The translations under genes were made by a program, and so were the position numbers. This document shows positions 60,923 through 61,243 of a stretch of 64,000 nt of DNA, piece by piece. Position 1 is the first letter of the stretch. Every line of letters begins with the position of its first letter. Source of the DNA: Escherichia coli. Its GTDB lineage: Bacteria; Pseudomonadota; Gammaproteobacteria; Enterobacterales; Enterobacteriaceae. The stretch is taken from the NCBI RefSeq assembly GCF_003334405.1, contig NZ_QOWM01000002.1; one strand, 5' to 3'. The notes beneath the pieces were generated by a model. The model was not told the DNA's origin. It did no database searches and saw only the letters and a list, made by a program, of their open reading frames with translations.

Positions 60923-60994
60923 AACCCTCTCCTTAGCTTATACAGATATCATTGAGTGACCGGTGTTGAGAAATCCGGTGGTTTAGGGGGATAG

Positions 60995-61010
60995 AGCAAC
61001 AATCGCACCA
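60995..61010 (-). promoter_or_regulatory. candidate sigma-54 (-24/-12) promoter upstream of ygfK
   Basis: Minus-strand sequence TGGTGCGATTGTTGCT fits TGG-N9-TTGC spacing of the TGGCAC-N5-TTGCW consensus, about 70-90 nt upstream of the ygfK start. Confidence 0.3.
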
Positions 61011-61243
61011 CTCTTGCCAGGTTTGGCGGGAAATATAAAAAAATGTGAGGCGGCTCGAAACTTAAGGGCTTTTTGTGAATGAACTCACAGGTGCTAAATG
61101 AGAATTAAAATCACTCCTGAAAATTATTATTGCCAGCCCATTTATCAATTTTTCTCTTTTCTCAAAATCAGTGATTCCTTATCATTATGATAATGAGTGC
61201 CGGAAGGATTAAATATTTGAACGCAATCGTTTAACTACGTTTT

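Follow-up and report, generated by a model that had tools for sequence, protein, structure and literature searches.

The -24/-12 motif upstream of ygfK is real and almost certainly a sigma-54 promoter which switches on the genes ygfK, ssnA, ygfM, and xdhD. This promoter is already known from an EcoCyc prediction, from ChIP-seq (2015) and from an iModulon (2023). Since sigma-54 binding at the exact sequence was published in 2015, it is no discovery. Added here are a candidate operator of the activator YgeV and a conserved, phased promoter layout, both proposed from sequence comparisons.

The -24/-12 element

The genes mocA (61822..61244) and ygfK (60922..57824) are separated by a 321-bp spacer, in which the element is located. 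All positions refer to the window, i.e., the whole 64-kb stretch of Escherichia coli DNA that was analyzed, which is collinear with the K-12 chromosome and reverse-complemented relative to it. The element, the start predicted from it and an overlapping site are:

60995..61011, minus strand: sigma-54 -24/-12 element GTGGTGCGATTGTTGCT (17-mer), with GG at 61009-61008 and GC at 60997-60996
60984 (+/- 1-2 nt), minus strand: predicted transcription start, placed from the -12 position, with a 62-nt leader to the ygfK ATG
61004..61020, minus strand: second, overlapping sigma-54-like site CTGGCAAGAGTGGTGCG, 10.4 bits, 9 nt upstream of the main site

A preliminary description of this DNA had flagged the element, within 60990..61015, as a candidate sigma-54 promoter because of GG and GC dinucleotides at the appropriate spacing on the minus strand. 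This was confirmed: the 16-mer TGGTGCGATTGTTGCT (61010..60995, minus strand) has the GG/GC spacing of the consensus TGGCACG-N4-TTGCW and agrees with it at 10 of the 12 specified positions. The distance to ygfK, which had been described as sensible, amounts to 74 nt from the C of the GC to the ATG at 60922. A start placed 12 nt 3′ of this C would lie near 60984, and the resulting leader of 62 nt equals the "distance 62" given for site OS31 by Bonocora et al. (PMC4591121, Table 1).

The frequency of such patterns in the 64-kb window shows no excess. TGGN8TTGCW occurs six times against 6.25 expected from shuffles, and the full consensus with at most two mismatches occurs 12 times against 15.7 expected. 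A matrix was built from the 41 published intergenic sites of Bonocora et al. (2015) with the ygfK site left out. With this leave-one-out matrix the ygfK element scores 12.1 bits and ranks fifth among the 127,968 positions of the window. The score lies within the range of experimentally bound sigma-54 sites (6.5-20.9 bits) and places the element only 36th among the 42 published intergenic sites. Its -24 region reads TGGTG, not TGGCA, and by sequence it is a weak site. The sequence is thus compatible with a sigma-54 site and is, alone, no proof of one. The element stands out from chance matches through its position, conservation and published ChIP data, and not through the motif itself.

The overlapping site CTGGCAAGAGTGGTGCG was considered as a functional register and rejected. 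Only 3 of 75 loci have it, all from Escherichia or one Citrobacter, and it is therefore probably not the functional register. It might add to the ChIP occupancy of the ygfK site, which is unexpectedly high (9th of 42) for a site ranking 36th of 42 by sequence.

The top matrix score in the window, 15.3 bits, belongs to CTGTCGCGATTTTTGCA (26115..26131, plus strand). It lacks the GG of the -24 region, was not found in the published ChIP-seq tables, and the matrix probably gives a false positive here.

Furthermore, neither a sigma-70-type promoter on the ygfK strand of the spacer nor an intrinsic terminator after mocA was predicted, and no known RNA families were found in the spacer and leader.

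Sigma-54 occupancy and conservation of the promoter

Occupancy of the element by sigma-54 in vivo is published. The ChIP-seq peak OS31 at 3014019 was reported with a FAT of 26 (26-fold above threshold), the motif GTGGTGCGATTGTTGCT on the plus strand and ygfK as the downstream gene (PMC4591121, Table 1). OS31 is the same object as the element described here, with identical 17-mer, strand, downstream gene and predicted 62-nt leader (Bonocora et al., 2015, PLoS Genet). Its FAT ranks ninth among the 42 intergenic sense sites, and its EcoCyc status is "P", i.e., predicted (PMC4591121). An independent ChIP-chip interval overlaps the site, and the orthologous position in several other genera has a motif score of about 10.5-11 (supplement, PMC4591121). 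In addition, only five genes called in an earlier microarray study of sigma-54 over-expression and deletion were confirmed by ChIP-seq, ygfK among them (cited in PMC4591121). A genomic SELEX with sigma-54 holoenzyme in vitro lists the ygeV/ygeW spacer and leaves ygfK and mocA unmentioned.

The conservation of the element was analyzed in 80 ygfK loci, one per species, covering Escherichia, Aeromonas, Vibrio, Photobacterium, Shewanella, Morganella, Erwinia, Betaproteobacteria, and Spirochaetes. A sense-strand -24/-12 site of at least 10 bits was found 57-154 nt from the ygfK ATG in 72 of the 80 loci, with a range from Escherichia to Shewanella and Betaproteobacteria; the controls gave such a site in two (antisense) and seven (coding sequence) of 80. 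The conserved site always has the register of the preliminary description, whose assignment of a sigma-54 promoter to ygfK is thus supported by OS31, the ChIP-chip overlap, the microarray and these 72 species. Only the Escherichia/Citrobacter/Klebsiella group has TGGTG at -24; the other taxa have the canonical TGGC. The three spirochaete genomes among the 80 loci showed no sigma-54 site.

That the motif is a functionless chance match would agree with the simple pattern counts in the window, which equal the shuffled expectation. This explanation is already refuted by ChIP and conservation, namely by sigma-54 occupancy in vivo at the exact sequence and by deep conservation in the same register, and its probability is negligible.

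Within the species, the 66-nt promoter segment was found in 5,169 of 5,426 complete E. coli genomes and is at least 99% identical in 4,484 of these. In the clinical isolate E. coli E1739 an IS1 is inserted in the ygfK Shine-Dalgarno region, at the equivalent of window positions 60924..60932, with a 9-bp target duplication. It separates the sigma-54 promoter from ygfK by 768 bp.

Bonocora et al. chose the term "binding site" over "promoter", as ChIP reports binding and not transcription, and pointed out that many sigma-54 sites may never fire (PMC4591121). Sigma-54 could accordingly bind upstream of ygfK to a silent or "parking" site, with ygfK transcripts coming from mocA read-through or from a sigma-70-family promoter that escaped recognition. 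Since no terminator was predicted after mocA, read-through could contribute; moreover, the element is weak by sequence, and neither a mapped ygfK transcript start nor a study measuring ygfK directly in rpoN or ygeV mutants was found in the literature searched. A silent site is nevertheless highly improbable. Position and orientation of the element are kept in 72 of the 80 species while the flanks, and even the -24 variant, change, and a phased, conserved, enhancer-like palindrome accompanies it. No sigma-70-like promoter was predicted on the ygfK strand, and ygfK both responded in the sigma-54 microarray and belongs to an iModulon attributed to a sigma-54 activator. An active sigma-54 promoter is the reading followed below.

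Genes served by the promoter

The genes behind the promoter span 52796..60922 on the minus strand and were assigned by open reading frames and the K-12 annotation:

57824..60922, minus strand: ygfK
56493..57821, minus strand: ssnA
55663..56442, minus strand: ygfM
52796..55666, minus strand: xdhD

Because the genes are tightly spaced, ygfK-ssnA-ygfM-xdhD are probably transcribed as a single transcript. Their products are enzymes of reductive uric acid degradation: XdhD-YgfM reduces uric acid to isoxanthine, while YgfK and SsnA dearomatise and open the ring. The operon covers the first committed steps by which gut bacteria degrade uric acid anaerobically. This pathway is now tied to urate levels in the host, and probiotic E. 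coli are being engineered to carry it.

Uric acid is a strong inducer of ygfK in E. coli, and the degradation of this compound is under glucose repression. The gene ygeV was reported among those required for anaerobic uric acid consumption by E. coli, and the YgeV iModulon, with which ygfK co-varies, includes all four genes ygfK, ssnA, ygfM, and xdhD. The signals which control the promoter are uric acid or purines, anaerobiosis and catabolite status, and not nitrogen. The preliminary description had expected conditional anaerobic or nitrogen-linked expression; the anaerobic part stands, in the form of anaerobic uric acid and purine breakdown with catabolite control, while control by nitrogen limitation was unsupported.

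YgeV and a candidate enhancer palindrome

A sigma-54 promoter had been expected to place these genes under an enhancer-binding protein. YgeV fits this role, as it is encoded in the same K-12 cluster (annotated outside the window), the four genes are in its iModulon and a palindrome lies upstream. The protein contains a PAS domain (residues 162-206), a Sigma54_activat (AAA+) domain (272-439) and an HTH_8 domain (Fis-type HTH, 548-587). No receiver domain was found in the domain search, and YgeV therefore probably senses its ligand directly. It has been named an "orphan response regulator" (PMC9426417), yet the receiver domain is absent and the protein looks like a directly ligand-sensing activator.

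A search for an upstream activator palindrome had been suggested, and a perfect inverted repeat was found:

61179..61193, palindromic: perfect palindrome TTATCATAATGATAA (TTATCA-N3-TGATAA), candidate YgeV enhancer (UAS), centre about -202

Related 15-mers are located upstream of the sigma-54 promoters of xdhA, ygeW, and ygfT. The ygfT/uacT and ygeV/ygeW spacers share the 15-mer TTCTCATATTGATAT, at -199 and -234, respectively, and CACTCATATTGATAC (-131) and TTATCACATTGATTT (-152) precede xdhA, so that a palindrome of the form TTMTCA-N3-TGATA is common to the upstream regions of xdhA, ygeW/ygeV, ygfK, and ygfT. The 12-mer CTCATATTGATA is present in three exact copies in 36 kb, against 0.12 expected even with one mismatch allowed, and all three sit in spacers of the cluster's sigma-54 sites.

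Among orthologous ygfK upstream regions, 72 of 73 contain the palindrome with at least 10 bits, compared with none of 73 coding controls and two of 73 shuffled ones. The matrix used had been refined on the same 73 sequences it scored, and the search was therefore repeated with the fixed pattern TATCA-N3-TGATA and at most one mismatch. This gave 82 matches in 21.9 kb of upstream sequence against six in 292 kb of control sequence, an enrichment of ~180-fold. The centres of the palindromes cluster at -181/-182, -202/-203, and -214, in steps of about two helical turns and then one, which suggests that the site may be constrained to one face of the helix.

In a representative search, the closest YgeV relatives outside E. 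coli have 45-53% identity and are encoded within the same gene cluster in other genomes. There, the palindrome is located 140-270 nt upstream of sigma-54 sites which front ygeW-like, xdh-like, and ygfK genes beside the YgeV orthologues. The HTH helix of these orthologues, ELGIG[I/V]ATLYRKIKKY, is nearly invariant.

The promoter might also be sigma-54-dependent with an activator other than YgeV, or the palindrome might be bound by another factor such as Fur or a repressor. When aligned by hand, the E. coli palindrome with its flanks, CATTATCATAATGATAAGG (61179..61196, minus strand), matches the Fur-box consensus at about 12 of 19 positions; the resemblance is weaker for the cross-species consensus TTATCAAAGTGATAG. 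Neither YgeV binding data nor a published YgeV binding site was found in the literature searched, and when the 80 ygfK loci were searched with YgeV by tblastn, none had an activator gene up to 3 kb away from ygfK. Furthermore, the gene ybiY is a member of the YgeV iModulon, and its upstream region (the ybiY-fsaA spacer of K-12) contains neither the palindrome nor a sense-strand sigma-54 site; its membership is therefore probably indirect. On the other side, each of the four sigma-54 promoters in the E. coli cluster has the palindrome, and their genes all belong to the YgeV iModulon. Elsewhere the palindrome adjoins YgeV orthologues in the same cluster, with their nearly invariant HTH helix. 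Another activator or another occupant of the palindrome is thus unlikely, and YgeV is retained as the probable activator.

CRP-like boxes and further conserved blocks

Between the palindrome and the promoter, two boxes of the CRP type and two further blocks were found. A counterpart of the proximal box lies before ygfT:

61074..61089: perfect CRP consensus box TGTGAGTTCATTCACA (TGTGA-N6-TCACA), centre -97.5
61044..61059, minus strand: proximal box TTCGAGCCGCCTCACA (TTNGA-N6-TCAC), CRP-like with a weak left half, centre -67.5
61098..61113, minus strand: conserved block TGATTTTAATTCTCAT, centre about -121, with the half-site-like TGAT and TTCTCA
61158..61170, minus strand: conserved block TGATTTTGAGAAA, centre about -180, with a TGAGAA half-site
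45939..45954, plus strand: TTNGA-N6-TCAC box before ygfT

The perfect CRP box is kept at -97.5/-98.5 in about 29 orthologous loci. Binding of CRP to the region is supported in vitro, as the targets of a CRP genomic SELEX include ygfK as well as ygeV<>ygeW and ygfT<>ygfU (PMC3105977).

In 16 genera, the proximal box and the -24/-12 element stay in register without gaps. Of 75 loci, 44 have the centre of this box between -67.5 and -69.5 and seven more have it about one turn farther out; the control frequency is 0.022 per kb. Similar boxes in K-12 are centred at -67.5 (xdhA), -68.5 (ygfT), and -77.5 (ygeW). Promoter, palindrome and boxes are hence conserved with fixed spacing.

From Escherichia to Shewanella the TTNGA-N6-TCAC box is locked at about -67.5 with respect to the predicted start, and its right half TCACRAAWTT is conserved beyond what CRP needs.

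No IHF consensus with at most one mismatch was found between the palindrome and the promoter. We infer that CRP may provide the DNA bend which is given by IHF at many sigma-54 promoters.

The blocks TGATTTTAATTCTCAT and TGATTTTGAGAAA are conserved across Enterobacterales in an anchored comparison. They were considered as additional full palindromes and rejected, as neither scores as one.

Proposed mechanism of activation

The region upstream of ygfK very probably acts as a sigma-54-dependent promoter of ygfK-ssnA-ygfM-xdhD. It is most likely activated by YgeV, and we propose that this happens through looping from the palindrome, with the aid of CRP. Sigma-54 RNA polymerase would wait on 61011..60995 as a closed complex that is unable to start alone, until an ATP-driven enhancer-binding protein remodels this complex and transcription starts near 60984. 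This activator would most likely be YgeV from the same cluster, probably a direct sensor of its ligand. Bound to TTATCA-N3-TGATAA about 202 nt upstream, it would contact the polymerase through DNA looping. The loop may be aided by cAMP-CRP at the -97.5 box and perhaps also at the CRP-like box at -67.5, which would explain the glucose repression. Control by sigma-54, a dedicated activator and CRP would likewise account for the silence of the pathway in ordinary cultures.

The OS31 paper reported binding and limited conservation; the present analysis adds the candidate enhancer, the phased boxes of the CRP type and a comparison of 80 species. The chances are somewhat better than even that the palindrome at about -202 is a so-far undescribed YgeV operator and part of an assembly of fixed geometry. 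In this assembly, a phased enhancer at about -181, -202 or -214 would be combined with one or two CRP-type boxes locked at -97.5 and -67.5 which replace the usual IHF bend, from Enterobacterales to Vibrionaceae and Shewanella, and the whole YgeV regulon would be defined by sequence. If true, this would allow the prediction of the regulon from sequence in other gut bacteria and a rational re-engineering of the switch.

Comparison with related systems

The other sigma-54 sites of the cluster, upstream of xdhA (OS29), ygeW (OS30), and ygfT (OS32), share the layout found at ygfK, i.e., a -24/-12 element, a palindrome of the TTMTCA-N3-TGATA type at a distance of 130-235 nt upstream, and a box of the CRP type between about -67 and -78. 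Like ygfK, these genes are members of the YgeV iModulon. Of the four promoters, only that of ygfK has a perfect palindrome and the extra perfect CRP box at -97.5. Its -24 region reads TGGTG, whereas TGGC is found at xdhA, ygeW, and ygfT, and its ChIP occupancy is the highest, with a FAT of 26 versus 11, 3, and 3.

Further sigma-54 sites and palindromes of the same family are located elsewhere in the window:

45809..45823, plus strand: palindrome TTCTCATATTGATAT in the ygfT/uacT spacer
45988..46004, plus strand: weak published sigma-54 site OS32, TATGCCCGTTTATTGCA, in the same spacer
62326..62342, plus strand: published intragenic sigma-54 site IS34 inside yqeC, facing yqeB
62569..62583, palindromic: perfect palindrome TTCTCAATGTGAGAA of the same family
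46..62, plus strand: CTGGCGGCAATATTGCA inside yggP, the published intragenic sigma-54 site IS35

The copy of TTCTCATATTGATAT in the ygfT/uacT spacer lies ~199 nt upstream of the predicted start of OS32 and is identical to the ygeV/ygeW copy. TTCTCAATGTGAGAA is located ~240 nt downstream of IS34 and could be an enhancer which acts from downstream or serves another promoter.

The same regulatory logic, with an enhancer-binding protein and sigma-54 promoters, applies to the DioR regulon of Firmicutes. DioR, a sigma-54 activator of Clostridiales, is predicted to control ygeW-ygfK-ssnA-ygeY, yqeB, yqeC-ygfJ, and related genes (PMC6615313). DioR belongs to another phylum, and its enhancer motif is described as distinct (PMC6615313). 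Given DioR-type control in Clostridiales, sigma-54 control of the pathway is widespread and was described before.

Enhancers of the NifA/FhlA type (TGT-N10-ACA) are likewise inverted repeats located 100-200 nt upstream of a -24/-12 promoter. The candidate YgeV site differs from them in its sequence and in its 3-nt spacer, and the TGT-N10-ACA pattern present in the mocA-ygfK spacer is the CRP box, not the palindrome.

Finally, the prpBCDE operon of E. coli and Salmonella is transcribed from a catabolic sigma-54 promoter with the pathway-specific, ligand-sensing activator PrpR and catabolite control by cAMP-CRP. The type of control would be alike at ygfK, where CRP would play the corresponding role, whereas activator and pathway differ.
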